Below the pieces are notes generated by a model. That model ran no database searches and was not told the DNA's origin. It saw only the letters and a list, made by a program, of their open reading frames with translations. A DNA stretch of 64,000 nt. Origin: Selaginella moellendorffii (lineage: Eukaryota > Plantae > Lycopodiophyta). Every line of letters starts with the position of its first letter. Position 1 is the stretch's first letter. A program made the position numbers and the translations under genes. Positions 5,038 through 33,243 of this stretch are shown one piece after another. The DNA is taken from assembly GCF_000143415.4 (NCBI RefSeq), contig NW_003314281.1, forward strand, positions 1 through 64,000. The letters are read 5' to 3'.

Positions 5038-5038
5038 T

Positions 5039-5058
5039 TGGTGGAGATGAGGGGCATC
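5039..5058 (+). promoter_or_regulatory. Primer-binding site of family A, tRNA-Ala-like
   Basis: TGGTGGAGATGAGGGGCATC lies 1 nt after the LTR. Its complement ends ...CATCTCCACCA, typical of tRNA-Ala 3' ends. Identical PBS at 29313-29332 (-). Confidence 0.75.
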
Positions 5059-5271
5059 TTTGATTGTCCATGAGGAGTGCTTAGATTTGGGATTTTGGTT
5101 TATATCTAGCTTTTTGCATTGTCTAGATCTAGCTTTTTCCATTTCCTTTCTTTTGTTCTTTCCTTTTAGGATTTTGGTTTAGATCTAGCTTTTTGCATTG
5201 TCTAAATCTACCATTTCCTTCTAGCTTTTTGTCATTTATCTTCTTTTGCTCTTTCTTTTTCATTTGTCTTC

Positions 5272-7431
5272 ATGGCAGATTAGCAATCTCCTCCTTTGAC
5301 TCTGGAGCAACAGTTGGTACAATTGCTTGATGCTATATGCTTTCAATTGAACAACCAAACTCAGTTGATGGCAGCATTCATAGCACGTGGTACAACTCCT
5401 CCTACTCTTGGTGCCAATCCTCACGTTCGGCTAAAGTTCTTTTGCAAGAATCCTAGGGATGATGTGTACCATTGGTTCGATCACTTCACAGTGATTGCCA
5501 CATATCATTCTTGGGATGATGCTTGATGTTTGTATGAGTTTCCCACGTGTCTCCAAGGGACGGCATTGCAGTGGTAGAATGGTTTGAGTACAGCCACTCG
5601 TGGGGATTGGAGTGTTCTCTTGGATGTCTTCAAACGCGCCTTCGGACACGCCGATGACTGTGATGATGCCTTCCAACAATTGCATCATCTTCACCAAGGG
5701 CCATTTGAGTCGGTGATGCAATTTGGCGTTCGTTTCTGAAGTCTTTTACTTCGTGCGGAGCCAAATATGTCGGAGCAAGATCAAGCTAGGAATGTTGTAG
5801 CCAACACTTCATCAAGATCTTGTCGGACTTGTGCATGCACTTGCTCCCCCCACCCTTGACAATGCTCTTCGCTTGGCATAACGTTATGAGATGTCGCCTC
5901 TTCCACTTCTCGCTACACGTCCTTCAGCTCCACTTCTTATAGGTGATGGTCCTGTTCCAATGGAGGTTGATGCTGCTGCTACTCATGTCCAAGGACAAGG
6001 GCAAGGACGTGGTCGTGGCTGTGATATGTTGTCCGTGTGATGAAATTAGTCATACTTATTGGCGTTGTCGGCATTTTCTAGATTGGCAACCTCCATTTTT
6101 TGGGTGGAGACCTTGGCATTAACAACATCCCGTTGGTGCTACTGTAGTGGAAGGTTTGGACACCGAGATGCATCCGGGAAATGAGGAGTCGCGCGAGTAA
6201 CGGAGTGACCTTGTGTGAATAAGTTAGTGACCCTTCCATCTTTGTTTCGGGAGTATAATTAAGGGGTTCACTCGGCACCAGTTCATCCAGTGTTTACTTT
6301 GCAAGCTCATTTTTATAACAAGAGGTCTCCTATTATTCTCTCTGTGTTGGTTGATACAAATTCGAGTTTATCTTCTATTACTCGACCTGTTGCCACACGT
6401 TGCCGTCTACACTTGTGTCGTGCGGCATAACCAGTTTTCATTCTTTATAGCAATGACACATATGCATGTGCACAGGACAAGGCGGACCTAGTTGTGCGTG
6501 TGGGTGATCTCGAGCTTGAGTTGCAGTCATTGCGGGTGGTGCCGAGTCAAGCTTTTGAACTCATTCTTGGTATAGATTGGTTGTAGCGCAATCATGCCAA
6601 CTGTGATTTTGAGGCTTCTCCCCCTTGTTTCATACTTCCTTATATTTCATTCATTCCTCTCACTTCTGTACCTCTTCATCCATCTACTTCTACCTCTACT
6701 TCCATTACTTTTGTTCCTTCACTATTTCCTCTGTTTCCGTCTTGTTCTACTCTTCCCTTTTCCAATCCCTCCAACAATCTTTGTGTTGCAGCGGTTAACC
6801 GGCTTATGAAGGAGTATTCTGATCTCTTTGAATTTGACCTATCATCTGGGGCCAAGATTGCCATACGTCATCTGATTCCAACTGGGGATGCTCGTCCAAT
6901 CAAGGTTCCTATTCGTCATCGGTCACCCAAGGAGATCAAGACTTTACATGCGAACGTAAAGGAGATGTTGGAGAAGGGTGTTATTTGGAAGTTGCGGAGT
7001 CCTTGGGCATGTGAGCCTCATCTTGTGATGAAGCCTAATGGGAGTATTTGTTTCTGCATCAACTATTGTCTGTTAAACAAAGTGACGATCCCGAATGTGT
7101 ACCCTCTTCCTCACACTATTGATCTCTTGGATTGTCTGGGGCGAAATCGTTGGTTCACCAAGCTGGATGTTGCTTCTGAGTACTAGTAAGTACTAATGGC
7201 CAAAGAAGATATTCCTAAGACTGCTTTTGGTACACCATTTGGTTTGTATGAGTTCTTGATAATGCTGTTTGGTTTGAACAATGCTCTAGCAACCTTCTAG
7301 TGGATGATGGACGAAGTTCTTTGTGATATGCCAGAGGTGACTGCTGACTTCATTGATGATGTTTTGATCCACTTGGAGGGGACGTGGGAGGAGCACGTTC
7401 GTGATGTTTGTAAAGTGTTGGATCGGCTACA
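5272..7431 (+). pseudogene. Family A gag-protease-RT (N-terminal part), with stops and frameshifts
   Basis: Gag fragment (FFCKNPRDDVYHWFDHF), GDGPVPMEVDA motif, degenerate protease LVDTNS, RT fragments (SPWACEPHLVMKPNGSICFCINY, FIDDVL). Confidence 0.88.
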
Positions 7432-8587
7432 TGTAAGGAACTGACTCCCCGAGATGTCGTAGGCTAAAGGATCCCCGAAAGCATGACCAAAATGACAAAG
7501 AGTTCATCGGATGGGACCGAGTCGAAGATCAAGTCCAAGACCGACTCTGAGACCGAGTTCGAGATAGAGTTCGGGATCGAGCCGAGGCCGAATCGGAGAC
7601 CGAGATCAAGACCGAGTTTGAGACTGAGTTCGAGACGGAGTCCGAGATCCAAATCGGGTCCGAGACCGAGTCCGAGGTCAGGTCTGAAGTCGAGTCCGAG
7701 ATTGGGTCCGAGATCGAGTCCGAGATCGAGTCCGAGACCGAATCCGAAGTCGGGTCCGAGATCGAGTCTGAGATCGAATCTGAGACTAAGTCCAAATACT
7801 ATTACGGGTCAAGGGGTGAAAGCCCAAAGCATGCGTCTCCCAGGGGGGGGGGCTGCAAGGGGTTCCAAATGTATAGTAGGGATAGTGAGGTCCAGGAACC
7901 AGTGTTGAAGGAACTCTCCAGTGGTGCTTCCAAACTGACTTGAGGTTGAGACTGGGGCCGAGGGGCCTTGGGTGGGGGTGAGCATGGGCTTGGGTGGTGC
8001 CGGAGGGGCCACCCAGGGAAGTGCTCAAGAGCAGCTCCCACTCTTGAAAGGGAAACCGACTGCGGTGCTCCCGGCTCATGTGAAGTGGTGCCCCACTTGA
8101 GTACTTTGTGGCTCATTGGTCCTTGCCCTTCCTAGGGGCTTGGGCCTTCCCTTTGGGATGGAAGTGGGGGGGTAGAGGTACCCATACTGGGCCGTTAGGC
8201 CAAAGTGTTTTGCCCCGATGTCCTGAAGCAAGTGTTGCACCTAAGGCTTGGGATTTAGAGGGTCCCATGATCAAGTCTTGTTGTACCAAGGAGTGTTAGG
8301 AACCTAGAGGCTTGGTGTGCTTGGCTGCTTGTGCCTGCGGGGAGTGTAGCTGAACCTTAAGTCCAATCTAACTCGGGGAGGGGGATTGGGAGAGATTTGG
8401 GAATCCGTGGATGGATGGCTAACGCTACGTTGCTCGTGCAGTGAGTAGCTGAAACCAAGTAGGACCAAGTAGGAGCTGGTACAATAGGTGGGAACTTTGG
8501 CGAGGGAACTTAGCACAAGCCAAGGCAGTGTTGGTCGAATAGACGAGGTAAGTTGGCAAATTGGAAAGGAAAAATTTGTGGCTTACA
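7432..8587 (+). repeat. Family B 5' LTR (1156 bp)
   Basis: TG...CA ends with TGTAAG/CTTACA inverted termini. Internal 12-bp tandem repeats (CCGAGATCGAGT-like). Matches 18140-19293. Confidence 0.95.
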
Positions 8588-8613
8588 ATTTGGTATCGGA
8601 GCCTCTTCCTCAG
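8548..8613 (+). other. Candidate 66-nt U2 intron spanning the U5 end and PBS of family B
   Basis: GAG|GTAAGT donor, CTTAC branch-like motif 8582-8586, CCTCTTCCTCAG acceptor. Ends 33 nt before the gag ATG (8647). The donor is also present in the other two LTR copies. Confidence 0.6.
8591..8602 (+). promoter_or_regulatory. Primer-binding site of family B (tRNA-iMet type)
   Basis: TGGTATCGGAGC, 3 nt after the LTR. One change from the canonical plant TGGTATCAGAGC. Confidence 0.85.
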
Positions 8614-8646
8614 TTCTAGCGAAGGATAGAGGCGGATTGCTGGGAG

Positions 8647-9200
8647 ATGGCAAAGGCAGGGCGTAAGCGAACCCAGGCAGAGACAGAACCTCCGCCAGAG
8701 TTGGAGCCTCCGGTTGAACAAAAGGCTATGGATGAGCAATCCTTGCATGAGGAGGACTCTAGTGAGGAAACTTCTAAAAAAGAGTCTGGTGGCGAGGTTC
8801 AGTCGTCCAAGGCTCGATTGGACGTTCTAGAAGGACAATTGGTGCAGACCAATGCCTTGCTAGAGACTCTTGTATGCAAGATAAAGCGTGACGAGAAGCG
8901 GAAGAAAAAGAGAAAGACTGCAGATGCAAAACTGAGGTATGTGATCCAGTCCCTAGCTCAAAGTTATTCATTAGACGAGCAACTTTGGTAGAGATTTGTT
9001 CGCGACATTTACTAGCCCTCCGAGGGAAGCTCGGAGGCAGCTTTGTTAAGATCCTTATTGACACGGGTGCTTCGGATAATTTTGTAGCTGCAGAAATAGT
9101 CCGGCAAGCTAGACTAACGGTGCAGCGGCTAGGCAAACCAAGGACTATAGAGTTTGTTCAAGGTAGCCAAAACACCGATGAGGTACTTCGACAAGCGAGA
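8647..9200 (+). pseudogene. Family B gag N-terminus plus aspartic protease (no capsid visible), truncated by insertion B'
   Basis: ORF 8647 is acidic with a coiled-coil and basic stretch. ORF 8985 contains ILIDTGASDNFV. Confidence 0.8.
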
Positions 9201-9893
9201 TGTAAGCCACAAATTTTTTATTTCTAATTTACCAGCTTACCTCGTCTATCTGACCAACACTGCCTTGGCTTGTGCTAAGTTCTCTCGCCAAGGTTCTCGT
9301 CTATTGTACCAGCTCCTTGGTCCTACTTGGTTTCAGCTACTCACTACACGAGAAATGGAGTGTTAGCCTTCCATCCATGGATTCCCAAATCTCTCCCAAT
9401 CCCCCTCCTCGGGTTAGACTGGACTTAAGGTTCGGCTACACTCCCCACAGGCACAAGCAGCTAAGCACACCAAGCCTCTAGGTTCCTAACACCCCTTGGT
9501 ACAACAAAACTTGATCATGGGACCCTCTAAATCCCAAGCCTTGGGTGCAACACTTGCTTCGGGACATCGAGGCGAAACACCATGGCCTAATGGCCCGGTA
9601 TGGGTACCTCTACCCCCCCCCCCCCCCCGACTTTCATCCCGAAGGGAAGGCCCAAGCCCCTAGGAAGGGCAAGGACCATGGACCCGCAAAGTACTCAAGT
9701 GGGGCACCACTCCACATGAGCCGAGAGCACGGCAGTCGGTTTCCCTTTCGGGAGTGGGAGCTGCTCTTGAGCACTTCCACTGGGTGGCCCCTCCGGCACC
9801 ACCCAAGCCCATGCTCACCCCCACCCAAGGCCCCTCGGCCCCAATCTCAACCTCAAATCAGTTTGGAAGCACCACTGGAGAGTTCCTTCAACC

Positions 9894-9945
9894 CTGCTTA
9901 AGGAACTCAAGATCAATTCATTTACAGGAATACATGCATTTTTAC
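9894..9945 (-). other. 52-nt GT-AG intron just before the GPY/F motif of B'
   Basis: GTAAAAATG...TTCCTTAAGCAG, identical to 17304-17355. Confidence 0.82.
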
Positions 9946-10363
9946 CTTTGGGTCAACTTCCGGCTGATCCCACTTGGTAGCCTGAGGTTCTTGGTGTTCA
10001 GCCACACCTTCTCCCTAGCTTGGAACTCTACATCCCGGTGCTTTTGGTTCGCGTACTTGGTTTGCCTTTGTTGAGCCCGTTCCAAGGAATCCCTCACTAG
10101 ATTCCAAATGTTAAGTCTTTCCGCCGTGAATGCCTCCACTGTGGGTAGCTCTCTATGATACTCGGCCACGCCGAGTTCCACAGGACCTTCAATAGCTCAC
10201 CCATTGATGACTTCCCATGGACTCACCCCGATACTCGAATGTGGTGAGTTGTTATAACATATTTCCGCAAGTCCCAAATGACTTACCCAATCGATCTGGT
10301 CTCCCGAGACATAGCATCGCAAATAATCCTCCAACTGCCTATTCACCCTTTCCGTTTGTCCGT

Positions 10364-10410
10364 CTGTCAAGAAGTGTTAGTGCCACAAAACTTAACTTAA
10401 TACCCCATAC
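10364..10410 (-). other. 47-nt GT-AG intron in the integrase core of B'
   Basis: GTATGG...CACTAACACTTCTTGACAG with a CTAAC branch point. Removal restores AYHPQTD|GQTERVN. Unspliced, it gives a stop and a frameshift. Confidence 0.85.
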
Positions 10411-12158
10411 CTGTCTGTGGGTGATAGGCTGTGCTGAATTTCAACTTGGTACGATACTGTTCCAGAAGAGTCCTCCAGAACCTACTCGTGAAGATCTTAT
10501 CTCGATCTGAGATGATCTCTTCCGACCTTCCCCGCACTCGAACCACTTGTTCGAAGAACAGCTTCGCCACACCTTCCGCATCCACTTCTGTTGTGGTGGG
10601 TATGAAATGTGCCATTTTTGAAAATCGGTCCACCACCACGAATATCGCATCAAACCCCTCGCTTGGGGGGAGTCCTGTGATGAAGTCCATTGTAAGACAT
10701 TTCCACGGGCAATCTGGAATTGGGATGCTTTGCAACAAGCCCCCACTAGCCTTAGTCACGGCTTTGACATGCTGACATGTTGGACATGTCTTTACATAGT
10801 CTTGGACATCCTTAGCCATATCTGGCCAATGGTACTTCCTCTTGAGTAAGCCCATCGTCTTGGGCACTCTGCCGTGTCCCGCAAGAGGTCCATCATGACA
10901 CTCTTCTAAGGCTACCTTCCTTAGTTCCCCTTCTGGAACATACACCCTCGTTTGCTTGTAATAGATGAGTCCGTTGCGTTCCGCATAGACCATTTTCTCT
11001 TCCATTGGCAGCTCACCTCTCTGGTGAGCTTCCCGTGCCTCTAGATTCCTCAGCAACACTTCTTGTGCTAGACCATCGTTTTCATATGTTGTCCGCACAT
11101 TATCCCAAAAGGTTGCTGTCACACTGGATATTGCCAACCTCAAGCTCGCTTTTCGACTTAGCGCATCTGCCACAATGTTGCTCTTCCCAGGCTTGTACAG
11201 AATCTCGCAATCAAACTCGGCCAAGGCATTGGCCCACCGACCCTGTTTCCCTCTCAGGTCGGGCTGTGACAAGAAGTGTTTCGTTGCCACATTGTCCGTG
11301 TAAACCTCGAAGTGTCTCCCAAGGTAGTGCCGCCACTCCTTGAGCATATTGACCACCGCAAACAATTCCTTCTCATGGGCAGGCCACTTCCTTTGAGCCT
11401 TGTCCAACTTCTTTGAGAAGAACGCTAATGGATGGTTGTCTTGCTTCAAAACTGCGCCCAACGCAAAGTCCGAAGCATCTGTTTCTACCTCAAAGTCCTT
11501 ACCAAAGTCTGGTAATGCCAACACGGGAGCCTTCCTCAACTTCCCTTTGAGGTGGACGAATGCCGCCTCACATTCCGCTGTCCATACCATCTTCCCTTTT
11601 CCTGTTTGGTCCGTTAAAGGTAGGGCTACTCTCGAATAGTGTCTGATAAACTTTCGGTAGTAGTTGCATAGCCCCAAGAATGCCCTCAACTCATGTACAT
11701 TTGATGGTCACTCCCATTCCTGGATCACTTGGACCTTCTCCGGGTCCACCTTGAGCCCGTCCTGGCCCACCACATGCCCGAGAAACTTTACCTCTTATTG
11801 AGCAAAGTCACATTTGCTCTCTTTAGCATACAGTTTGTGTTCCCTTAGTTTCTCAAACACCTTCGCCAAGTGTTCGGCATGCTCCTCTAGCGTCTCTCTA
11901 TAGATAAGGATGTCATCGATATAGACAACCACATCCAGATAGGGTACAAAGATGTGGTTCATCAGCGCCGAAAACGTTGCCGGCGCATTACATACCCCGA
12001 AGGGCATCACCAGAAACTCAAAGCTCCCATACCTCGTTCGACAGGTTGTCTTCTCGACATCTTCCTCGGCTACCCTGATCCTGAAAATGGGGGAAAATGT
12101 CGCTAGCGAGATCATCGGATTGAAGATCGTTTCTGATTGCATCCATCAAGGAGGAGTC

Positions 12159-14357
12159 CTAAGGGGCTAGGGAAATTGCCATAACTTGAAGCCGATCAGG
12201 ACCGAGGATAACTTGATCTTGTTGATCAAAGGCAGGATTACCAGGCCTGAGACTGAGATAGGAGCGCCTTGAAAGAGCATCAGAAAGGCCTTGAAACTTT
12301 CCAGGTCTGTACTTGATAACAAAGTCAAACCGACTTAGGAATTGTGCCCACCTTGCTTGACGACGGCTTAAAACTCGGGAAGTGGCAAAGTACTTGAGAT
12401 TTTTGTGATCCGTCCAGACTGTTGTTTGATGGCTCGCCCCCTTCAAGAAACGGCGCCACTCTCCAAAGGAATCCACGATGGCAAGGAGCTCCTTGTCGTG
12501 GATTTCGTAATTGATCTCCGCAGGCTGGAATTTCCGAGAATGGAAAGCGACCGGATGAAATTCGTGATCCGCTCCGAGTTGAGACAGCACAGCACCAATG
12601 GCAAAGTCGGAGGCATCAGCCTCGATGAAGAAAGGTTGTGAGGAATAAGCATGGATCAAGACAGGAGCAGAACTGAAGGCCGCCTTGAGTGTGTCGAAGG
12701 CCTGCTGGGCAGCAGCAGACCAAGAGAAGGGAACATCCTTGCGAGTGAGATGCGTGAGAGGAAGGACAATGTCAGAGTAGTGAGCAATGAATTTGCGGTA
12801 GAAGTTGGCGAAGCCAAGGAAAACCTGAACGTCCGACATTGATTGTGGAGGCTCCCATTCAAGAATAGTCTTGACTTTGGCAGGATCCATCGTGATACCC
12901 TCAGGAGTGACAATGTACCCAAGGAACTCCACAGACTGCTGATCAAAGGAACATTTCTCAAGCTTCGCGTATAGGCCGTATTCTCGCAGCTTCGCTAGCA
13001 CCTTGCGTACATGTTCGTCATGCTCCTCCTGAGTTTTTGAGTAGATGAGGATGTCATCAAGGTAGACGATCACCATCTGATCAAGAAACTCCCGAAAGAC
13101 GTTGTTCGCCATATGTTGGAAAACTGCTGGAGCATTTGTCAAGCCAAATGGCATGACAGTGTACTCGAAGTGGCCATAGCGGGTTCGGAACGCAGTCTTC
13201 CATTCATCACCAGGCCGGATCCGGATCAGGTTGTATGCTCCACGGAGGTCGATCTTGGTGAAGAAGCGGGCACCGCCGAGACGTTCCAACAGGTCCGAGA
13301 TCAGGGGCAGCGGATAACGGTTCCGAACAGTCACCTTGTTCAAACCTCGGTAGTCGATGACTAGCCGCAAGCTCCCATCCTTCTTCTTGACAAAGAAGAC
13401 AAGCGCTCCAGCTGGGGACTGCAAATGCTGAATGTAGCCCGAGGCAAGGTTCTCATCCACGTACTCTTTGAGGGCCTTAAGCTTGGATGGGGATAACCCG
13501 TAGATAGGCCCCCATGGAGGTGACACTCCTTCCTGTAAATCAATGGGACAATCATAAGGCCGATGAACAGGCAGTACACTAGCTTTTTTCTTGTCAAACA
13601 CATCCCCAAAATCATGATACTTCTCAGGAAGACTGACAGGAAAAACATGCAAAGCAAAAAGAAAAAGAGGTTCTTCATGAAGGAGTTCTTTCATAGTGAT
13701 TGTGGAGATAGGAGGAGGCATACGACTAAATGGAATGATGAGACGAGGATACGGTCCAGTGTAAGATGGAAGAGAGGAAAAAGAAGAGGGTGAAAACTTT
13801 ATAGAGTCAGGAATAGAACCCCGATTTGAGTTTAGGGAACTTTTCCTGATTCGGACTCGATGAACAGTAGGGGAAGCCGTGGGAGAGATGAGCTGTAATT
13901 CCTTCCAATAGATTTGAGGCTGATGGAGTTGGAACCAAGGAAGACCGAGCACCACAGAGGAGGACTTGCTGTTGATGATGTTGAAGGTGATATCGGTGAT
14001 GGTGGACCTGATGTGTACTCGAACGGGCAACGTTTCCCTAAGTCCAGAAGATGGAGACACAAAATGCCCGCCGATGCCTTCAACCCTCAAATCCCGTATG
14101 GTAGGAGAAAGAGGAACGTGATGTCGGGCAGCAAAGTCCGTGTCCATGAAGCAGGAAGTTGCACCCGAGTCTAGTAACGCCAGAGCCTTGAGACCAGATT
14201 GTCCGGTGAAAGAAAGGAGACATGGGACGCGGAAGTTGCGGGAATTGGTGGTGGCTTTGATGAAAGGTGGTGAGGAGCTTGATAAAGAAGAAAAGTGATT
14301 TTTATTCGGGGAGTCCAAACAGACAGCTCCTACTCTGTTTGGACAGGGTCGTTTCCC
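12159..14357 (-). CDS. Family C pol (protease-RT-RNase H), open frame ending at a premature TAG
   Basis: 754-aa ORF with all PR/RT/RH motifs. The frame continues past TAG 12159-12161 to the junction at ~12082. Confidence 0.88.
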   Translation of the reverse strand, partial: GKRPCPNRVGAVCLDSPNKNHFSSLSSSSPPFIKATTNSRNFRVPCLLSFTGQSGLKALALLDSGATSCFMDTDFAARHHVPLSPTIRDLRVEGIGGHFVSPSSGLRETLPVRVHIRSTITDITFNIINSKSSSVVLGLPWFQLHQPQIYWKELQLISPTASPTVHRVRIRKSSLNSNRGSIPDSIKFSPSSFSSLPSYTGPYPRLIIPFSRMPPPISTITMKELLHEEPLFLFALHVFPVSLPEKYHDFGDVFDKKKASVLPVHRPYDCPIDLQEGVSPPWGPIYGLSPSKLKALKEYVDENLASGYIQHLQSPAGALVFFVKKKDGSLRLVIDYRGLNKVTVRNRYPLPLISDLLERLGGARFFTKIDLRGAYNLIRIRPGDEWKTAFRTRYGHFEYTVMPFGLTNAPAVFQHMANNVFREFLDQMVIVYLDDILIYSKTQEEHDEHVRKVLAKLREYGLYAKLEKCSFDQQSVEFLGYIVTPEGITMDPAKVKTILEWEPPQSMSDVQVFLGFANFYRKFIAHYSDIVLPLTHLTRKDVPFSWSAAAQQAFDTLKAAFSSAPVLIHAYSSQPFFIEADASDFAIGAVLSQLGADHEFHPVAFHSRKFQPAEINYEIHDKELLAIVDSFGEWRRFLKGASHQTTVWTDHKNLKYFATSRVLSRRQARWAQFLSRFDFVIKYRPGKFQGLSDALSRRSYLSLRPGNPAFDQQDQVILGPDRLQVMAISLAP
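14313..14357 (-). promoter_or_regulatory. -1 programmed ribosomal frameshift signal (G GGA AAC plus stem/pseudoknot)
   Basis: Heptamer 14357-14351 is in the gag frame (S-G-N). A 6-nt spacer precedes a perfect 11-bp stem GTCCAAACAGA/TCTGTTTGGAC, and pol is in the -1 frame. Confidence 0.8.
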
Positions 14358-15296
14358 GACTGCAATAGAGGTGGACTTTGAGGCAGAGTGAACTCGAGCA
14401 GTCGAGGAGGCTTCTTGGGACATACAGCTGCTTTGTGATTAGGATTAGCACAATAGAGGCAAAGATTATGAGATATTCGACGTTGCTTCTCAGCAGGACT
14501 CAACTTCCCTCTAATGAGTCGGGGAGTACCAGAAATATCCATCGGAACTGGAGCAGTAGGTTCAGGAGTATGCCCCGAAGACTCAAGCTGGGATTCCTGA
14601 GTCTGGGACGGAAAAACAGTGGTGTGGCGACTTTCCTAACAACGTTGAAAGAGACGATTGTCACATCGAACAGCTTTGTTGATGGCATCCGACAAGTCCT
14701 TGGGATCCTCCATGGTGAGCAACAAATCCTTGACACCGTTGTTGAGGCCGAAACAAAATTGGTCAATCAGGGCCCGCTCATCCCACTGAGTGTCCAAAGC
14801 AAGGAGTTGGAACTCTGCAGCGTAGATCGAGGCAAGACCCCTGAGAGAGACGTCTCATCTTTGTGGTAGCAGCCCGAACCCGATCCGTCTCACCAAAACA
14901 TGCTTCGAGCTTCTCTTTGAACAATTGAAGATCCATCAGTTCTGGAACCACGACCCCTTTCATGCTCTTCTCCAAAAGAGGAGAAAACCATGACAAAGCT
15001 GCACCTTCGAGCAACGTCCCAATCGCGCCGATTTGAGACTTGGGAGTAGGGTACCGCCGATGTTGAAGTGCGAAGATCAACTCCATCTGGTTCAGGAATC
15101 CGCGAAGCTCCGAACGCTTGCTTGAAAATTTCGCCGGGAAGCTCACCTTCGGTTCAGGAACTTTGCTGGATCCTTGAGCCGAAAGTGAAGCAAGCTCCTG
15201 CTGCATGTGAAGAAGGGTCGCCTTCAGCTCGGTATTCTCAGACTAGATTTTTGCAAGGACTTCAGCAAAGAAATCAGGATGGCTTGGAGACTCCAT
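14330..15296 (-). pseudogene. Family C gag (with stop and frameshifts)
   Basis: PEPKVSFPAKFSSKRSELRGFLNQ...LLEGAALSWF capsid-like segment, PVPMDI motif and zinc knuckle. Confidence 0.85.
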
Positions 15297-15393
15297 TGGC
15301 AAGAAGAAAGAAAAAAAGGGGGAAAAAAGCCAAAGGTAATCAAACAATCAAAGCGAGCTAAAAGAAAAGCAAAAACCACAATCTGAATCAAAC

Positions 15394-15780
15394 TGTCAAG
15401 ACCCCCAACAAGATCAAGACTGGAAAATGCTAAAGACAAAGAGAAAAAGCTAGTGAAAACAAAGAAGAGACCTTAGACTGGTGTTGATTCAGATTGTGGA
15501 GAAATGGAACAAGGCTAACCTATATATACTATAGGTTGATGAAGCTCCACCACTCTTGAATCGAGGACGGCCTAAATATAGCTGAGGTCGAGGAGGCGCC
15601 ACATCATCATCAGGAATGTGGCTCGAGACTCAGGAATCAGGAAGTGTCTCGAGAGTCAGGAATAGGGAAGTGTCTCGAGAGTTAGGAATAGGGAAGTGTC
15701 TCGAGAGTCAGGAATGTGGTTTGTAGGTCAGGAATCCGGCGAGAGTCAAGAATGTGGCAAGAATTGGGGGATTCCTGACA
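15394..15780 (-). repeat. Family C 5' LTR (387 bp) with ~26-bp tandem repeats
   Basis: TG...CA ends, TATATATA at 15521-15528, about four copies of TGTCTCGAGAGTCAGGAATAGGGAAG at 15615-15720. Confidence 0.85.
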
Positions 15781-16855
15781 GAAACGGATGCTTCGGACTT
15801 TGGGTTAGGCGTAGTTTTGAAGCAAGACAACCATCCATTAGCGTTCTTCTCAAAGAAGTTGGACAAGGCTCAAAGGAAGTGGCCTGCCCATGAGAAGGAA
15901 TTGTTTGCGGTGGTCAATATGCTCAAGGAGTGGCGGCACTACCTTGGGAGACACTTCGAGGTTTACACGGACAATGTGGCAACGAAACACTTCTTGTCAC
16001 AGCCCGACCTAAGAGGGAAACAGGGTCGGTGGGCCAATGCCTTGGCCGAGTTTGATTGCGAGATTCTGTACAAGCCTGGGAAGAGCAACATTGTGGCGGA
16101 TGCGCTAAGTCGAAAAGCGAGCTTGAGGTTGGCAATATCCAGTGCGACAGCAACCTTTTGGGACAATGTGCGGACAACATATGAGAACAATGGTCTAGCA
16201 CAAGAAGTGTTGCTGAGGAATCTAGAGGCACGGGAAGCTCACCAGAGAGGTGAGCTGCCAACGGAAGAGAAAACGGGTTATGCGGAACGCAACAGACTCA
16301 TCTATTACAAGCAAACGAGGGTGTATGTTCCAGAAGGGGAACTAAGGAAGGTAGCCTTAGAAGAGTGTCATGATGGACCTCTTGCGGGACATGGCGAAGT
16401 GCCCAAGACGATGGGCTTACTCAAGAGGAAGTATCACTGGCTAGATATGGCTAAGGACATCCAAGACTATGTAAAGACATGTCCAACATGTCAGCAGGTC
16501 AAAGCTGTGACTAAGGTTAGTGGGGGCTTGTTGCAAAGCATCCCAATTCCAGATCATCCGTGGAAATGTCTTACGATGGACTTTATCATGGGACTCCCCC
16601 CAAGCGAGGGGTTTGATGCGATATTTGTGGTGGTGGACCGATTTTCAAAAATGGCACATTTCATACTCACCACAACGGAAGTGGATGCGGAAGGTGTGGC
16701 GAAGTTCTTCTTCGAACAAGTGGTTCAAGTGCGGGGAAGGCCGGAAGAGATTATCTCAGATCGAGATAAGATCTTCACTAGTAGGTTCTGGAGAACTCTC
16801 CTGGAATAGTATTGCACCAAGTTGAAATTTAGCACAGCCTATCACCCACAGACAG

Positions 16856-16902
16856 GTATTGGGTATTAAGTCAAGTTTGATGGCACTAACACTTCTTGAC
16901 AA
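16856..16902 (+). other. 47-nt integrase intron of element B (acceptor mutated AG>AA in this copy)
   Basis: Same position and length as 10364-10410. GTATTG donor and CTAAC branch point retained. Confidence 0.8.
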
Positions 16903-17303
16903 ACGGACAAACGGAAAGGGTGAATAGATAGCTGGAGGATTATTTGCGATGCTATGTCTCGGGAGACCAGATCGATTGGGTAAGTCATTTGGGACTTGTG
17001 GAAATGTGTTATGAGTATCGGGGTGAGTCCATGGGAAGTCATCAATGGGCGAGCTATTGAAGGTCCTGTGGAACTCGGTGTGGCCGAGTATCATGGAGAG
17101 CTACCCGCAGTGGAGGCATTCATGGCGGAAAGACTCAACATTTGGAATCTAGTGAGGGATTCCTTGGAACGGGCTCAACAAAGGCAAACCAAGTACGCGA
17201 ACCAAAAGCGCCGGGATGTAGAGTTCCAAGCTGGGGAGAAGGTGTGGCTGAACACCAAGAACCTCAGGCTACCAAGTGGGATTAGTCGGAAGTTGACCCA
17301 AAG

Positions 17304-17355
17304 GTAAAAATGCATGTATTCCTGTAAATGAATTGATCTTGAGTTCCTTAAGCAG
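17304..17355 (+). other. 52-nt GT-AG intron before the GPY/F motif of element B
   Basis: CAA AG|gtaaaa...ttaagcag|G TTC GCG GGG CTT TAC restores KLTQRFAGLYEIEARIGKVAYRL. Confidence 0.85.
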
Positions 17356-18139
17356 GTTCGCGGGGCTTTACGAGATTGAGGCACGAATTGGTAAAGTGGC
17401 TTACCGTCTCTGACTTCCTCGAGAGATGGGGAAGATGCACCCAGTGTTCCACGTGAACTTACTCAAGCTGTACTTTGAGGATCCGCTTCGCAAGAACCAA
17501 GTAAGACCTTTACCTGAGGTTATCCAAGGGGAAGAGGAATACGAAGTCAAGGCCATCCTCAATGCGCGCAAAAGCAAGTGACAAGGACGCAAGGTGAGAA
17601 AGTTCTATGTGAAGTGGAAAGGATTTCCACATTGTGAGGCAACATGGGAACCGGAGGAGAACCTAGCGAATGCGCGAGATCTAGTGGAGGAATTTCTGCA
17701 AGGCAAAACTCTATATACTTATGCAAAGTTCAATTAAAATATCAATTTGCAAAGTTGAGCAAGTCGCATATGTTGGGACCCGAAGGCGCGCCGAAGGTAA
17801 GCTAATTAGCACGGGTTTGCTAGGTCAACCAGGTGTAGGGCACTAACCCCAACTCCCCGCGGGGATGTCGAATCTGTAGATGTATTCTACGGAGGTTGGG
17901 TTTAAGTCCCAACCCCCTAGTAAAGCAAGGCTGGGTTCAAGTCCCAACCCCATACTAGGGCGTGGTGAGGTGAGGGGTATAGGGACACCTATATTCCATT
18001 GTCATGGGCTCTTGGCCGAGGAGGCTAACTTAGGCACACCGCTAAGTGGGGGGATGCCCCCGGAGACATGGTCAACAAGTCGTAGCATAAAAAGAGACGT
18101 TCGATGTGGGCATCGAACTTCTTCTATGGGTGGTGGAGT

Positions 18140-19293
18140 TGTAAGGAACCGACTCCCCGAAATGTCGTAAGCTAAAGGATCCCTGAAAGCATGACCAAAA
18201 TGACAAAGAGTTCATCGGATGGGACCGAGTCAGAGATCGAGTCCAAGACCGACTCTGAGACCAAGTTCGAGATAGAGTCCGGGATCGAGCCGAGGCCAAA
18301 TCGGAGACTGAGATCGAGACTGAGTTCGAGACGGAGTCCGAGATCCAAATCGGGTCCGAGACCGAGTCCGAGGTCAAGTCCGAAGTTGAGTCCGAGATTG
18401 GGTCCGAGATCGAGTCCGAGATCAAGTCCGAGACCGAATCCGAAGTCGGGTCCGAGATCGAGTCCGAGATCGAATCTGAGACTAAGTCCAAATACTAATA
18501 CGGGTCAAGGGGTGAAAGCCCAAAGCGTGCGTCTCCCAAGGGGGGGGGAGGGGGAGGGGGCTGCAGGGCGTTCCAAAAGTATAGTAGGGATAATGAGGTC
18601 CAGGAACCAGTCTTGAAGGAACTTTCCAGAGGTGCTTCCAAACTGACTTGAGGTTGGACTGGGGCCGAGGGGCCTTAGGTGGGAGTGAGCATGGGCTTGG
18701 GTGGTGCTGGAGGGGCCACCTAGGTAAGTGCTCAAGAGTAGCTCCCACTCCCAAAAGTGAAACCGACTGCGGTGCTCCCGGCTCATGTGGAGTGGTGCCC
18801 CACTTGAGTACCTTGTGGCTCATTGGTCCTCGCCCTTCCTAGGGGCTTGGGCCTTCCCTTCGGGATGGAAGTGGGGGGGTAGAGGTACCCATACCGGGCC
18901 ATTAGGCCACGTGTTTCGCCCTGATGTCCCAAAGCAAGTGTTGCACCCAAGGCTTGGGATTTAGAGGGTCCCATGATCAAGTCTTATTGTACCAAGGGGT
19001 GTTAGGAACCTGGAGGCTTGGTGTGCTTGGCTGCTTGTGCCTACGGGGAGTGTAGCCAAACCTTAAGTCCAGTCTAACACGGGGAGGGGGATTAGGAGAG
19101 ATTTGGGAATCCGTGGATGGATGGCTAACGCTCTGTTGCTCGTATAGTGAGTAGCTGAAACCAAGTAGGACCAAGTAGGAGCTGGTACAATAGGTGGGAA
19201 CCTTGGTGAGGGAACTTAGCACAAGCCAAGGCAGTGTTGGTTGGATAGACGAGGTAAGTTGGTAAATTGGAAAGGAAAAATTTGTGGCTTACA
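18140..19293 (+). repeat. Family B 3' LTR (1154 bp)
   Basis: Direct repeat of 7432-8587, preceded by G-rich GGGTGGTGGAG (PPT-like). Confidence 0.95.
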
Positions 19294-21524
19294 CTACGCG
19301 ACATTGGTTTAAAGCTGAAGTGGTTGAAGTGCGTGTTTGGGTTTAAGGACACAACTTATCTCTGGTACTGTATTTCTCGTGAGGGTTTGCAAGTTGATCC
19401 TAACAAACTTGTGGCTATTCTAAAATTCCCTACTCTAAAGTGTATGAATGATGTGCAGCACTTTTTGGGCAAAGTGTAGTATCTCGGTCGTTTTGTGAAT
19501 CATCTTTCTGATCGCACTACACTGTTGCGAGCATTGTTGAAGTCATCAAAGTCATCTTCATTTGGTCTTTGGATTGTGAGTGGGCGTTCATGGATCTCAA
19601 AGAGCTATTGACAACTCCTCCGATTTTGGCATATCTTGACTACACTTAACCTTTTATTTTGTGTGTAGATGCTTCTAATATTGGTCTTGGGGTTGTGTTG
19701 ATGCAAGAGAGCTCGAGTGTGCTTGGTCAGCATCATCCTATTGCATATATCAACCGTACATTACAACCAGTGGAGATGAACTACTCCACGATAGAGAAAG
19801 AGTGTTTAGCAGCAGTCTGGGGTTTCGAGAAACTTCATGCATATCTACATGCTTCTCGGACGTTACTTGAAGGTGACTATGCTGTTATTACTTCATTATT
19901 GAAGCGGAAGAACCTAGTTGGTCATACTACTCGATGGGCTTTGAAGCTTCAGATATATGATTTTGATGTTGTTCATCACCCAAGGAGTTCTATGGATAAT
20001 GCTGATGCCCTTTCTTGAGCTCCTCTTCCTTCTCCACTCTCTTTTCATGTTTCTGATGAGCGTGTTACTCCTGCATCTGTGGATTTTCTAGACAAGGATT
20101 CTGTGCCCTCAGCAGTTGCTGTACTTGATGTTTAGTGTCCACAAGGCATAGAGCAAGATCTACCTTCTCTTGATGAGGTTCGCGAGGCTCAAAAGATTAA
20201 GCCGTGGATTCGAAGGCTTCGAGATGGGTTTGAGAATCCTGCATCACTTGCTGATGACTTACCTTTCCGGCATTTACATTCTTAATATCGCCTTGACGAC
20301 AGCCTTCTTTATTTTGTAGGGATGGATCTTGATGATCATTTACGGCTAGTGGTGCTTTCTGTCTTTATTCCACGGTTTCTCCATGCCTACCATGATTCTC
20401 CTGTTCTAGGTGGGCATATGGGACATCGTCATATAATCAAGAAGCTACGCAGGTCTTTGTATTGGCCGGAGATGCGACGTGATATTATTCGGTATGTGCG
20501 TAGCTGCATTTGGTGCCAAGCTCATAATACTCCCCCTCGGGTTGCGGAAGGACAGTTGTCGTCAATTGCAGTTTCCCGTCCATTTGAGTTGGTGGCATTT
20601 GATCTTATGGGATCTTTTCCACGGTTGACTGCTGGCAATGAGTATGTTATTATTGCTTCTGACTACTTGACTCGTTGGGTGGAAGTTGGTGCTCTTTCTA
20701 GTGCCTCTGCAACTGCTATTGGATACTTCCTCCTCAATCGAGTGGTATTCCAGCATTCTTATCTAGAGCGGATTCTTTCGGATAATGGTCCCGCATTTAT
20801 GGTTGAGGCATTTCATATTTTGACATCTTGGTTGGGGATTTGCCACACTTTCACAAGTGCTTATCGTCCACAATCAGACGGTCTGGTGGAACGGCTCATT
20901 TGGACGTTCAAGGGGATGATTGCGAAGTATGTGAACTTTCAGCATTCTGATTGGGATAGTTATTTGCCGTCTCTTCAGTATGCATATATCACTAGGGTGC
21001 AGAGTTCTGTTGGTGCTTCACCATATAAACTCCTATATGGTCATGATCCAATATTACCAACGGAGCTGGGTTTACCTTCGCGATTGCCACGAGTTGTGGA
21101 TGCTAGGTCATGGGATCAATATTTGACAAGCATTCTTCCACTTGTCCGAGCCAAGTCTGTCAAACACTTAGGCCGCGTACAAGTGGGACAACAACGGCGT
21201 TACAACTCCCATCATCGTCCACCTGCAAAGTACAAAGTGGATGATTTGGTGTTAGTCCATTTTCCCCATCTTACGGTATGTGGTTTATCTAAGAGGCTCC
21301 TTGCACAGTGGAAAGGACCGTATCGAGTGTTGCGGCAAGTTAGACCACAAGTTTATGAGGTTCGGCATGATGTCCAGCAGGCCAATCCTCTAGAGATTGT
21401 GCATGTGCAGCAGTTGAAACACTTTATAAAAAGGGATCAGGAGAAGTTAATCCCATTTACAGATCTGTTGATGCCTCCTCTTGATGTTCCTTCAGATCCC
21501 GGCCTATCTACAAGAGAACCCTGA
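19294..21524 (+). pseudogene. Family A RT C-terminus, RNase H and integrase
   Basis: CVDASNIGLG (RH), NYSTIEKECLA, 400-aa ORF with HHCC, FDLMG, SDNG, QSDGLVER and WKGPY. Confidence 0.9.
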
Positions 21525-21556
21525 TGGTCTTCCATTATTCCGAGAGGAGGGGATGA

Positions 21557-21731
21557 TGTGAGGGCCAAGTGTATGGCTATGATGCCGTATACTAATATTA
21601 GCATAGTGGGATTTTGGTAGCCGTCGGATTGGTTTCAATCCGGACCACTCGCTCCTGTATATAAGCTAGGGTTTTTGGGCTAATTGATATGCACATTTCT
21701 GTATTCCCTTTCTATATTCCATGCACTCACA
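21557..21731 (+). repeat. Family A 3' LTR (175 bp)
   Basis: TGTGAG...CTCACA following the polypurine tract. Confidence 0.92.
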
Positions 21732-21831: not shown

Positions 21832-23011
21832 GTGAGATTTTAAGTTGTCCAATGCACCCATGTAATTGGTTTTCTCTACTATTCTTGTACAAACAACTCT
21901 TCTGGATCACATCAAAATTTCACTCTAGAAATCGCTAATGTATTTTGTGAGAGATACATGAAAACTAGATGATTATGGTTTTTTATTTGCATATATGTGT
22001 TTAGATATGATTCTTTCAAAGCATATAATAAGAGATCAAGGTGATAAGTAAGTAGCCAAGTTTTCTTGCATTTTAACTATGAAACTAGAACTAAATCTAG
22101 TTATCAACAGAATTACATAGGTTAGAAACTTTCAACACTAAAAAGATGTTTGGCATTATGTACTGCACCCAGAATAAGCACCTGGATAACACTAATTAGA
22201 CTTCCTCTGGGCAACTTGTGAATGCAACTATGCAGGTGTGCTTCTACCATGGAGTGTGTATATACTGTTTAAATAGCTCTACTTATTTTTTGAAAGGTCT
22301 AATCAATAGTAAATAAAACTTATCAATTTGTTTCATATGTAAAGTTTTAATTTTCTGTTTCAAAGTAACAAAAAGTACTGCCAAAATTATTGGTTAAAGT
22401 TAGAAAAGAAATGCCTCTTCCAACAACACACAAATATAGAAAATAAAAAAATAAATTTAGAAGTTCACTCTAGGTTTGAAAAAAGTGTTATCAGTTTATC
22501 AAATTATTAGTTTTACCTTATATTTTTTGACTAAATGTGCAGGAGATTTATTATATAAGGTTGTTTTCTTACACTCATATTACCAAGTACTAAGTATGGA
22601 AAACAAATCATTTCTCTACTTAATTTTATTGCTTGTAGTCATTCTGAAAAATGAGAACTTTTGTAATGCCACTACAAGTATCAAAGTGGAAGGTTATGTT
22701 TATTGTACTAATTGTGGTTCACTTTCTCAAACTGGCATTTTGGGTAACAGAAATTCATCCCATCTTTTGAATTCTTTTTAATCTTGTTAAATCTTTTAGG
22801 TGCCAGGGTAAATCTGGTTTGTCTAGGAGACAGTGATTCAACATTTACAAATAATAAAGGGTTCTTTGATATCTCTGAATCAGTGAAAACTGGAACAGAT
22901 ATTGGGAATTGCCGAGTGAGTGTGGATGTAAGTAGAACACCCATATCACCCCGGGGGTGTTCTTTCTTAACAGACATAAATGGTGGGTCAAGTGGCCAAT
23001 CCTTAAGCACA
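21832..23011. repeat. Right arm of the inverted duplication (partner 1-1249)
   Basis: Reverse-complement identity with the window start. Confidence 0.9.
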
Positions 23012-24939: not shown

Positions 24940-27900
24940 GGAAAGGGAATACAGAAAATATGCATATCAATTAACCTAAAAACCCTAGCTTATATATAAG
25001 AGCAAGTGGCCTGGATTGAAACCAATCTGACAACTACCAAAATCCCACTATGATAATATTAATATACGGCATCGTAGCCGTACACTTGGCCCTCACATCA
25101 TCCCCTCTTGGAATAATGGAAGACCATTAGGGTTCTCTTGTAGATGGGCCGGGATTTGGAGGAATGTCAGGAGGATGCATCGGGGCATTAATTGCTCCTG
25201 ATCCCTTTGTATGAAGCGTTTCAACCATTGCACATGCACAATCTTTGGAGGATTAGCCTGCTGGACGTCATGCCAAACCTCATAAACTGGTGGTCCAACT
25301 TGTTGCAACACCCGATACGGTCCTTTCCACTGCGCAAGGAGCCCCTTATATAAACTACGTACCGTAAGATGGGGAAAACGGACCAACACCAAATCATCCA
25401 CTTTGTACTCCATAGGTGGACGATGATGGGAGTTGTAGCACCGTTGTTATCCCACTTGTACGCGGCCTAAGTGTTCGGCAGACTCAGCTCGGACAAGTGG
25501 AAGAATGCTCGTCAAATACTAATCTCACGACCTAACATTGGCAGCTCATGGCAATTGCAATGGTAAACCTAGCTCTGTTGGTAATATTAGATCATGACCA
25601 TATAGGAGTTTATATGGTGAAGCACCAATAGAACTTTGCACCACTGTGACATATGTATACCGAAGAAATGGCAAATAACCATCCCAATCCGAATGCTGAA
25701 AGTTCACATACTTCGCAATCATCCCCTTGAACGTCCAAACGAGCCGTTCCACCAGACCGTCTGATTGTGAATGATAAGCACTTGTGAAAGTGTGGCGAAT
25801 CCCCAACCAAGATGTCAAAATATGAAATGCCTCAGCCATAAATGCGGGACCATTATGCGAAAGAATCCGCTCTAGACAAGAATGCTGGAACACCACTCGA
25901 TTGAGAAGGAAGTATCCAATAGCAGTTGCAGAGGCACTAGAAAGAGCACCAACTTCCACCCAACGAGTCAAGTAGTCAAAAGCAATAATAACATACTCAT
26001 TGCCAGCAGTCGACCGTGGAAAAGGTCCCATAAGATCGAATGCCACTAACTCAAACGGACGGGAAACTACAATTAACTCCAACCGTCCTTCCGTAGCCCA
26101 AGGGGGAGTATTACGAGCTTGGCACCAAATGCAGCTACGCACATACCGAATAATATCACGTCACATCTCCGGCCAATACAAAGACCTGCGTAGCTTCTCG
26201 ATTACACGACGATGTCCCATATGCCCACCTAGAACAGGAGAATCATGGTAGGTATGGAAAAACCGTTGAATAAAGACAGAAAGCACCACTAGCCGTAAAT
26301 GATCATCAAGATCCATCCCTACAAAATAAAGAAGGCTGTCGTCAAGGCGATATTAAGAATGTAAATGCCGGAAAGGTAAGTCATCAGCAAGTGATGCAGG
26401 ATTCTCAAACCCATCTCGAAGCCTTCGAATCCACGGCTCAATCTTTTGAGCCTCGCGAACCTCATCAAGAGAAGGTAGATCTTGCTCTATGCCTTGTGGA
26501 CACTAAACATCAAGTACAACAACTGCTGAGGGCACAGAATCCTTGTCTAGAAAATCCACATATGCAAGAGTAACAGGCTCATCAGAAACATGAGAAGAGA
26601 GTGGAGAAGGAAGAGGAGCTCGAGAAAGGGCATCAACATTATCCATAGAACTCGTTGGATGATGAACAACATCAAAATCATATATTTGAAGCTTCAAAGC
26701 CCATCGAGCAATACGACCAACTAGGTTCTTCCGCTTCAATAATGAAGTAATAACAGCATAGTCACCTTCAAGTAATGTCCGAGAAGCATGTAGATATGCA
26801 TGAAGTTTCTCAAAACCCCAGACTGCTGCTAAACACTCTTTCTCTGTCGTGGAGTAGTTCATCTCCGCTGGTTGTAATGTACGGCTGATATATGCAATAG
26901 GATGATGCTGACCAAGCACACTCAAGCTCTCTTGCATCAACACACCCCCAAGACCAATATTAGAAGCATCCACACACAAAATAAAAGGTTAAGTGTAGTC
27001 AAGATATGCCAAAACCGAAGGAGTCGTCAATAGCTCTTTGAGATCCATGAACGCCCACTCACAATCCAGAGACCAAATGAAGATGACTTTGATGACTTCA
27101 GCAATGCTTGCAACAGTGTAGTGCGATCAGAAAGATGATCCACAAAACGACCAAGATACTACACCTTGCCCAAGAAGTGCTACACATCATTCATACACTT
27201 CGGAGTGGATCAAAACATCATCAATGAAGTCAGCAGCCACCTCTGGCATATTGCAAAGAACTTCGTCCATCATCCACTAGAAGATTGCTAGAGCATTGTT
27301 CAAACTAAACAGCATCACTAAGAACTCATACAAACCAAATAGTGTACGAAAAGCAGTCTTAGGAATATCTTCTTTGGCCATTAGTACTTACTAGTACTCA
27401 GAAGCAACATCCAGCTTGGTGAAATCTTGATCTCCTTGGGTGACCGACGACGAATAAGAACCTTGATTGGACGAGCATCCCCAGTTGGAATTGGATGACA
27501 TGTGGCAATCTTGGCCCCAAATGATAGGTCAAATTCAAAGAGATCAGAATACTCCTTCATAAGTCGGTCAACTACTGCAACACAAAGATTGTCAGAGGGA
27601 TCGGAAAAGGGAAGAGCAGAACAAGATAGAAACACAGGAGGAAATAGTGGGGAAACAAAAGTAATGGAAGCAGAAGTAGAAGTAGAGGGATAAAGAGGTA
27701 TGGAAGTGAGAGGAATGGATAAAACGTAAGGAAGTATGAGACAAGGGGGAGAAGCCTCAAAGTCACACTTAGCATGATTGCGCTGCAACCAATCCATACC
27801 AAAAATGAGGTCAAAAGCTTGACTCGACACCGCAATGAGTACAACTCAAGCTCGAAATCACCCATACGCACAACCAGGTCTGCCTCATCTCATGCACATG

Positions 27901-29499
27901 TATGTGTATGGCCATTGCCATAAAGAATGAAAACTGGTTTTGCCGCACGACGCAAGTGTAGACGACAATATGTGGCAACAGGTCGAGCAATAGAAGATAA
28001 ACTCAAATTTGTATCAACCAACATGGAGAGAATAATAGGAGACCTCTTGTTATAAGAATGAGCTTGCAAAGTAAACACTGGATGAACTGGTGCCGAATGA
28101 ACCCCTTAATTATACTCCCGAAACAAAGATGGAAGGGTCATTAACTTATTCGCGCAAGGTCACTCTGTTACTCGCGCGACTCCTTGTTTCCCGGATGCAT
28201 CTCGGTGTCCAAACCTTCCACTACAGCAGCACATCCGGGATGTTGTTAATGCCAAGGTCTTCACCCAGAAAATGGAGGTTGCCAATCTAGAAAATGCCGA
28301 CAACACCGATAAGTATGACCAACTTCATCACATGCCTAACAGCGAACATCACGGCCATGACTACATCCTCGCCCTTGACCTTGGACTCGAGCAGCAACAG
28401 CATCAACCTCTATTGGAACAGGACCATCACCCATAGGAAGTGGAGCTGAAGGACGTGCAGTGAGAAGTGGAAGAGGCGACGTCTCATAACGTTGTGCCAA
28501 GTGAAGAGCATTGTCAAGGGTGGCAGGAGCAAGTGCATGCACAAGTCTGACAAGATCTTGACGAAGTGCTGGCTACAACATTCCTAGCTTGATCCGCTTC
28601 GATATATTTGGCTCCGCACGAAGCAAAAGACATCAGAAATGAACACCAAATTGCATCACTAACTCAGATGGCCCTTGGCAAAGACGATGCAATTGTTGGA
28701 AAGCATCATCACAGTCATCGGCATGTTCGAAGGCGCGTTTGAAGACATCCGGAAGAACACTCCAATCCCTGCGAGTGGCTGCTCCCAAACTGTTGTACCA
28801 CTACAACGCCATCCCTTGGAGACACGTGGGAAACTCACGCAAACGTCAAGCATCATCCCAAGAATGATATGTGGCAATCATTGTAAAGTGATCGAACCAA
28901 TGGTACACATTTTCCCCAGGATTCCCGCGAAAGAACTCCGGCCGAACGCGAGGATTGGCACCAAGAGCAGGAGGAGTTGTACCATGTGCCGTGAATGCCA
29001 CCATCAACTGAGTTTGGTTGTTCAATTGCAATCGCATAGCATCAAGCAATTGTACCAACTACTGCTCCAGAGTCAAAGGAGGAGATTGCTGATCTGCCAT
29101 AAAGATGAATGAAAAGGAAAGAGCAAAATAAGAGAAATGACAAAATGCTAGAAGGAAATGGTAGATCTAGACAATGCAAAAAGCTAGATCTAAACCAAAA
29201 TTCTGAAAGGAAGGAACAAAAGAAAGGAAATGGAAAAAACTAGATATAGACAATGCAAAAATTAGATCTAAACTGAAATCCCAAATCCAAGCACTCCCCA
29301 GAGACAATCAAAGATGCCCCTCATCTCCACCAATGTGAGTGCATGGAGTATGGAAAGGGAATACAAAAATGTGCATATCAATTAGCCTAGCTTATATATA
29401 GGAGCGAGTGGTCCAGATTGAAACCAATTCGACAGCTACCAAAATCCCACTATGCTAATATTAGTATACGGCATCGTAGTTATACACTTGGCCCTCACA
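24940..29499 (-). mobile_element. Second copy (A') of family A, inverted, with internal RT deletions
   Basis: 5' LTR 29334-29499, PBS 29313-29332, gag/PR/RH/INT fragments homologous to A, 3' LTR ~24940-25097 lacking its last ~18 bp. RT deletions near 27205 and 27420. Confidence 0.92.
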
Positions 29500-33219: not shown

Positions 33220-33243
33220 GGTTTTAACATAATAAAGATATGA

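Follow-up and report, generated by a model that had tools for sequence, protein, structure and literature searches.

The classic way to prove retrotransposition is to observe that introns have been lost. In foamy viruses a spliced RNA gives rise to Pol and the genome is the unspliced RNA; the splice is a large subgenomic one that takes out gag, Pol itself being uninterrupted. Among plant LTR retrotransposons, Ogre elements (of the Tat group, in Pisum and Medicago) possess one genomic intron, on average 274 bp long, which lies between the GAG-PR and the RT-RH-INT ORFs and which is spliced from a subset of the transcripts to allow synthesis of the whole polyprotein (excerpted text of PMC6317226, PMC12786077 and PMC3735527). 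For BARE1 and EVADE, which are Ty1/copia elements, excerpts of PMC3735527 and PMC5580714 describe spliced RNAs that occur together with unspliced ones, and BARE1 is described as packaging an unspliced, non-polyadenylated RNA pool (PMC3735527). Introns also occur in other classes of elements: the excerpted sources report one to four of them within the gypsy-like integrase of Ginger1 DNA transposons (PMC2836005), whose relative GingerRoot is present in Selaginella lepidophylla (PMC6839031), and report their retention through retrotransposition in Penelope-like elements (PMC8557442). In its excerpted text, a 2025 review (PMC12786077) gives just two notable examples of plant LTR elements whose introns are functional, Ogre and EVADE.

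Here a 64,000-nucleotide stretch of DNA from Selaginella moellendorffii (termed here the window) is found to contain a Ty3/gypsy chromovirus whose integrase is interrupted by two inserts that are confirmed to be real spliceosomal introns. As in foamy viruses, a Pol product is predicted to come from spliced RNA, but here the Pol coding sequence is itself interrupted. As in Ogre, going by its excerpted descriptions, Pol domains become available only upon the splicing of an intron that genomic copies keep; unlike Ogre, this element is a chromovirus, has two introns of 47-52 nt inside the integrase, and needs no splicing for RT and RH. Relative to BARE1 and EVADE as there described, where the spliced species is a short Gag RNA and the unspliced one encodes complete Pol, the arrangement is reversed for integrase. 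Ginger1 shares the presence of introns in a gypsy-type integrase, but it has terminal inverted repeats and no RT, and its introns cost nothing; Penelope-like elements differ in having, according to the same partial source, neither LTRs nor a DDE integrase. A search of the literature yielded no report of the present introns; annotations of them could exist in REXdb additional files 1 and 3, in Repbase and in journals behind a subscription. What is seemingly new--that is, not found described--is the location of the introns within integrase, the presence of two of them of host size, and the chromovirus host; the Ogre logic is already known.

A high-copy chromovirus that carries two gene-like introns in its integrase constitutes a natural reporter of which RNA pool gets packaged: each genomic copy records whether its template was spliced or unspliced, so that the question of translation versus packaging becomes countable in an existing genome. 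More practically, transposable element pipelines may misscore intron-bearing families in short-intron genomes as frameshifted relics.

Results

Architecture and identity of the element

The intron-bearing element (copy B; Table 1) has direct TG...CA LTRs, a primer-binding site (PBS; presumably of the tRNA-Met type), an imperfect purine tract and a target-site duplication (TSD) in which 4 of 5 positions match. A preliminary description of the locus, based on its sequence, had reported paired LTRs together with a 5-bp TSD; the former are present, and the latter is imperfect (flanks CTACA and CTACG). Pfam matches within the element run in the order protease, RT, RNase H, H2C2 finger, rve core, SH3_Tf2-1 and Chromo, the chromodomain thus being C-terminal to the integrase (Pfam Chromo E 6.5e-13 in exon 3). 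The two LTRs are 94.2% identical (1076 matches and 66 mismatches, 56 of them transitions; K2P 0.061), which at a substitution rate of 1.3e-8 per site per year would place the insertion about 2 million years ago, probably an overestimate. Both LTRs carry a degenerate 12-nt tandem array (7576-7841 and 18284-18537).

Table 1. Coordinates of the element, its introns and the insertions nested within it
Feature	Position	Strand	Description
Element B, whole	7432-19293	+	between LTRs of 1156 and 1154 nt
5' LTR of B	7432-8587	+	1156 nt, TG...CA, poly-G tract, left flank CTACA
Primer-binding site of B	8591-8603	+	13 nt
Gag remnant and protease start of B	8620-9200	+	internally deleted; Pfam aspartyl protease matches 9018-9155
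Copy B'	9201-12158	-	inverted, inside the protease of B; carries part of RT, then RH, INT exon 1, intron 1, exon 2 and intron 2
Intron 2 in inverted copy B'	9894-9945	-	GT...AG, same sequence as that of B
Intron 1 in inverted copy B'	10364-10410	-	GT...AG
Family C gypsy element	12159-15779	-	gag, PR-RT-RH, truncated before integrase; unrelated, outside the intron finding
B exon 1, 3' part	15780-16855	+	RNase H, integrase H2C2 finger, both catalytic Asp
Intron 1 in copy B	16856-16902	+	47 nt, phase 1, acceptor AA here, AG in family
B exon 2	16903-17303	+	catalytic Glu and rest of integrase
Intron 2 in copy B	17304-17355	+	52 nt, phase 2, GT...AG
B exon 3	17356-17737	+	GPY/F-SH3 region and chromodomain; Pfam SH3_Tf2-1 and Chromo
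Purine-rich tract	18128-18139	+	imperfect, precedes 3' LTR
3' LTR of B	18140-19293	+	1154 nt, right flank CTACG

Copy B sits, with a near-TSD, inside the RT of an older gypsy element (family A). The copy of family A that it splits occupies 4983-7431 and 19294-21712, and no chromodomain was detected in this family; a second, inverted copy lies nearby at 24941-29387. Within B, in turn, lies the inverted copy B', in which RT through integrase exon 1 forms one frame, so that there is no further intron in that part. Beyond intron 2, a deletion takes B' straight to a partial 3' LTR whose end falls exactly at 9201; at the deletion junction (9894-9899) the end of intron 2 is joined to mid-LTR sequence with a short similarity there, and the coincidence of the deletion with the intron 2 acceptor may reflect either chance or a splicing-related event. 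Both window copies are dead: they carry stops, exon 2 of B has lost 17 nt after 17012 in a deletion private to this copy, and B' is truncated right after intron 2. The 759-residue PR-RT-RH frame of family C is fused to the RT of B', and our reading is that family C probably inserted into the RNase H of B and that a later deletion joined it to the RT of B'.

The family is very likely SM1-Galahad of S. moellendorffii (Novikov et al. 2012, PMC3350952), to which it was matched by description rather than by sequence. In its excerpted text, that source reports hundreds of copies at ~95% identity and no intact copy; a consensus with three ORFs, the main one ending in integrase and the extra ones being 316 and 309 bp long, with the chromodomain in the last; LTRs of 1076/1146 bp; poly-G tracts of 11-25; and a 13-bp Met PBS. 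The window element has the same host, LTRs longer than 1 kb (1156/1154 nt), poly-G tracts of 9-16, a 13-nt Met PBS and short ORFs of 318 and 309 nt, with the chromodomain likewise in the last; the 309 nt are those of exon 3 of B, counted from the first ATG to the last sense codon. That the host is S. moellendorffii agrees with the NOG1 protein encoded in the window, which has a database match at 100% identity, the match in another lycophyte being at 74%. The two introns account for the description of SM1-Galahad as lacking an intact copy; the main text of PMC3350952 never mentions introns or splicing. Its sister family SM2-Galahad is there described as intact, abundant and young, with a single 4731-bp ORF and LTRs 99.7% identical.

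Two other assignments were tried and rejected. Membership in Ogre/Tat does not agree with introns that lie within integrase or with the presence of a chromodomain, although the element works like Ogre. Nor is it a Ginger1 transposon: RT, RH, PR and direct LTRs are present, and no end-joining inverted repeat occurs among the 25 pairs listed of 42.

Two spliceosomal introns in the integrase gene

The preliminary description had called attention to inserts of 47 and 52 nt that are not multiples of three, contain in-frame stops and split integrase motifs, and all of this is borne out. Intron 1 splits, in phase 1, the codon for D in HPQTDGQTERVN (HPQT-D-GQTERVN), and intron 2 splits, in phase 2, the codon for R in KLTQRFAG (KLTQ-R-FAGLYEI); the unspliced reading frame stops four codons into intron 1, and the first full codon of intron 2 is a stop codon. 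When seven intact homologues are used in tblastn searches, the alignments break at both inserts; splicing both of them out restores collinearity with uninterrupted homologues (these seven, the related genomic loci described below and the proteins of the sister clade). The GC content is 0.33-0.38 in the introns versus 0.47-0.51 in the exons. As claimed, they come close in size to host introns: 11 of these, identified by eye in two window genes, span 50-136 nt with a median of 55.

The GT...AG ends originally ascribed to both inserts hold, as U2-type ends, for intron 2 in both copies and for intron 1 in B' and in ~98% of the DNA depth described below; intron 1 of B itself ends in AA. The CTAAC motif reported in intron 1 is indeed found, at 16886-16890, where it is a candidate branch point at the level of the motif. 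The coordinates in B' likewise agree with the claim that the same inserts occupy matching sites there, and the 52-mer is identical in the two copies (0/52 differences), the 47-mer differing at 5/47 positions. Extra conservation of the introns between B and B' is nonetheless unsupported, since five differences in 99 nt is about the average rate, and the identity of the 52-mer, which by our own arithmetic is expected about 10% of the time at 4.3% internal divergence, is unremarkable on its own. A role for the introns as structured RNAs or cis-elements was considered and dropped: compared with shuffled sequences they show no special fold (z -0.44 and +0.13), and an Rfam search of the introns gave no match.

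Retention of the introns in genomic DNA

DNA run X1 provides 15,544 family contigs that align to a region of 1.4 kb, the depth of which is not copy number. Summed over these contigs, depth is 0.85-0.98 million in the intron bins versus 0.73-1.33 million in bins 16400-17574, and a G occurs at position 16902 in 722,382 of 736,454 (~98%), which yields an AG acceptor. None of the 15 joints listed (depth 122-292), out of 23, skips an intron. In nine contigs the interior of intron 2 differs at 5 of 30 letters, and intron 2 is therefore present in a diverged subfamily as well. The bulk of the family keeps both introns and the AG acceptor in its DNA; rare intronless copies are possible.

Splicing in transcript data

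Transcript evidence comes from four contig sets (X15-X18), whose RNA status is guessed ('probable-RNA') and whose unspliced contigs may be DNA, and from raw reads of X22-X24, the only sets with RNA on record. Removal occurs at exactly the joints that the preliminary description had predicted, both in contigs and, for intron 1, in one RNA-seq read. Contigs of X15, X16 and X18 skip intron 1 exactly (joint 16855-16903, 47 nt). Intron 2 is skipped exactly (52 nt, GT..AG) in X15 and X16--that is, in two of the four probable-RNA sets, both from one study (P2)--and each of these two sets includes a single contig, of 1083 and 2500 nt, respectively, that skips both introns; the intron-2 joint is absent from X17 and X18. 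The spliced contigs of X15 and X16 correspond to one common haplotype. X17 keeps intron 1 together with the same non-B alleles that the spliced contigs carry, and thus on nearly the same haplotype, and X18 contains one spliced and one unspliced contig at intron 1 and an unspliced contig (depth 2) at intron 2.

Raw RNA-seq contains hardly any reads of the family: 4, 3 and 0 were recovered from ~12% of X22, X23 and X24, the zero for X24 amounting to no test. One 150-nt read of X22 covers 13+33+14+47+43 nt of five consecutive bins; it covers 16830 and 16928 but not 16902, and hence skips intron 1, as determined by bin arithmetic rather than from a listed joint. This read has 6 mismatches to B, which is fewer than the X15/X16 haplotype would give, so that a second haplotype is spliced. 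Counted by study, splicing of intron 1 is seen in three (P2, P4 and P6) and splicing of intron 2 in one (P2). A separate observation concerns up to three raw RNA reads (one from X22 and two from X23) that, again by bin arithmetic, seem to cease fitting at ~17328, inside intron 2; the break follows an AAA and the remainders of the reads are unlike the window, which could be due to intronic polyadenylation or to a rearranged copy.

Reading frames and selection

The catalytic Glu follows the second Asp by 35 residues, and intron 1 sits between the two, thereby cutting the D-D pair from the Glu; because the DDE triad is split in this way, unspliced RNA cannot give an active integrase. The coding potential of each RNA follows from the reading frames, with the single gag-to-integrase frame being taken from the excerpted text of PMC3350952 because both copies in the window have gag deleted. 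Unspliced RNA encodes Gag-PR-RT-RH and an integrase stub that lacks the catalytic Glu; RNA in which intron 2 alone remains specifies a complete core that lacks GPY/F and the chromodomain; and, as had been proposed, the full integrase with its chromodomain needs both introns to be out.

Of the 18 alleles that belong to the expressed haplotype and occur neither in B or B' nor in the DNA-majority rows, 16 lie at third codon positions of the spliced frame (14 of the 17 scored are synonymous), compared with 30 of 61 changes private to a copy (Fisher p=0.003); the corresponding counts downstream of intron 1 are 9/11 and 12/31 (p=0.03). These counts derive from 40 of 84 and 40 of 216 rows, with author-sorted alleles and few haplotypes; they suggest, in a suggestive rather than final way, that selection acts on the spliced protein. 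Between the two intron sites there are 139 residues, as compared with a mode of 140 in the sister clade, to which exons 2 and 3 are identical at a median of 35% and 37% of positions.

Relatives and origin of the introns

As controls, 83 related loci at 43-54% identity were used, from metagenome and viral contigs. At site 1, 81 of the 83 have no comparable insert (71 with exact spacing) and the other two do not reach the site. At site 2, a 52-nt insert is seen in 0 of the 50 loci with an exon-3 match (22 with exact spacing), the remaining 33 being uninformative there for want of an exon-2 or exon-3 match. Two gaps of 35-37 nt at site 2 were rejected as inserts: they were extrapolated from short exon-2 matches, and the translations cross the motif. 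The proteins of the sister clade align residue for residue across both sites. In a FastTree analysis of 61 out of 63 rows picked from match lists, with midpoint rooting and a long end branch, the element is sister to a 23-member, mostly angiosperm chromovirus clade (SH-like support 99). The tree contains no labelled reference; the Galadriel clade name for the element comes from PMC3350952. Protein searches returned neither a close relative (best identities ~50-56%) nor a spliced product.

Because the relatives lack the inserts and the sister clade is in register, this lineage has most likely gained the introns. Short direct repeats, of 5 and 4 nt, flank the two introns, which, speculatively, possibly arose as short insertions with duplicated flanks at a staggered break; neither the rest of the window nor the 83 loci contained a match that would point to an intron source.

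Discussion

The interpretation favored here, to which we assign a probability of roughly three in four, is that the full integrase is made from doubly spliced mRNA only, whereas the unspliced RNA is the packaged, reverse-transcribed genome. From this perspective: the unspliced RNA would yield Gag-PR-RT-RH and a dead integrase stub while also serving as the genome; the doubly spliced RNA would yield the chromo-integrase; and partial splicing would ration integrase relative to Gag and RT. Because the introns are retained in DNA, spliced RNA is presumably excluded from particles, and, because spliced RNA also encodes Gag, such an exclusion needs a mechanism. The simplest would be separate RNA pools for translation and for replication, by analogy with what the excerpted source describes for BARE1.

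A more elaborate proposal, which is tentative and rather doubtful, regards the two introns as a splicing switch among three products--a dead integrase, a catalytic one without GPY/F and chromodomain, and the full chromo-integrase--with the replicating RNA fully shielded from the spliceosome. Retention of intron 2 would then lead to a clean stop at its first codon and hence to a catalytic, chromodomain-less integrase, and the shielding would have kept both introns in place through hundreds of retrotranspositions. If true, splicing would govern integration in its dose as well as in its preference for targets.

Of the explanations that compete with production of integrase from doubly spliced mRNA, the one that survives best, itself improbable, is that the introns, though real, arrived in a defective lineage, non-autonomous for integrase, which an intronless relative (SM2-Galahad, for example) mobilized in trans; splicing would then be incidental and the spliced protein dispensable. 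Such a helper may be available, inasmuch as the excerpted text of PMC3350952 describes no intact SM1 copy and an SM2-Galahad that is intact, single-ORF, young and abundant, and dependence on it would fit with two window copies that are both dead and with very low expression. Against it, however, are the precise, in-register removal of each of two separate inserts, the preservation of length and motifs in exons 2 and 3, and the mostly third-position (9/11) lineage variants downstream of intron 1.

It is very unlikely that the family instead spread at the DNA level after the introns had been gained, either by Ginger-like transposition acting on the TG...CA ends or by segmental duplication. Precedents exist in the introns of Ginger1 integrases (PMC2836005) and in the GingerRoot of a Selaginella (PMC6839031), both known here from excerpted text, and the location of B' inside B and the identity of their intron-2 sequences would be accommodated. 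B nevertheless has direct LTRs, a PBS, protease, RT and RNase H, and its insertion, marked by a near-TSD, splits the RT of an older element. Moreover, the distance K is smaller between the two LTRs of B (0.067) than between the B' LTR and either of them (0.075 and 0.085), and there is no 3'-to-3' affinity: the B' LTR agrees with the 5' LTR of B at 24 sites and with the 3' LTR at 17, matching neither at 28. This pattern, like the precise LTR end that B' has of its own, fits separate retrotranspositions of B and B' rather than a later DNA copy of the 3' half of B, though a very early duplication would be expected to give the same one.

Least likely of all, the intron-free contigs might derive from one transcribed intronless genomic copy (or from DNA) instead of from ongoing splicing, as the guessed RNA status of X15-X18, the listing of 15 of the 23 DNA joints and the single haplotype of X15/X16 would allow; but intron 1 is still present in X17, whose haplotype is nearly the same, the read of recorded RNA that skips intron 1 represents another haplotype, and a copy lacking the introns exactly would have to stem from earlier splicing, which would leave the inserts introns all the same.

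Other features of the window

Several features of the window lie outside the nested elements. A U12-type AT...AC intron with an ATATCCTT donor occurs at 62003-62138 as the first intron of its gene, which, judging from the translation, we take to encode a UDP-glucuronate decarboxylase-like protein. A proline-rich, extensin-like gene region forms an inverted duplication that is 98% identical (1-1070 and 21938-23011), and a further 80% paralogue of this region is present at 29652-30348. Finally, translations read by eye reveal a cluster of long, mostly single-exon PPR-like genes at 31341-35814, 40661-45055, 47134-48201 and 54548-57709.
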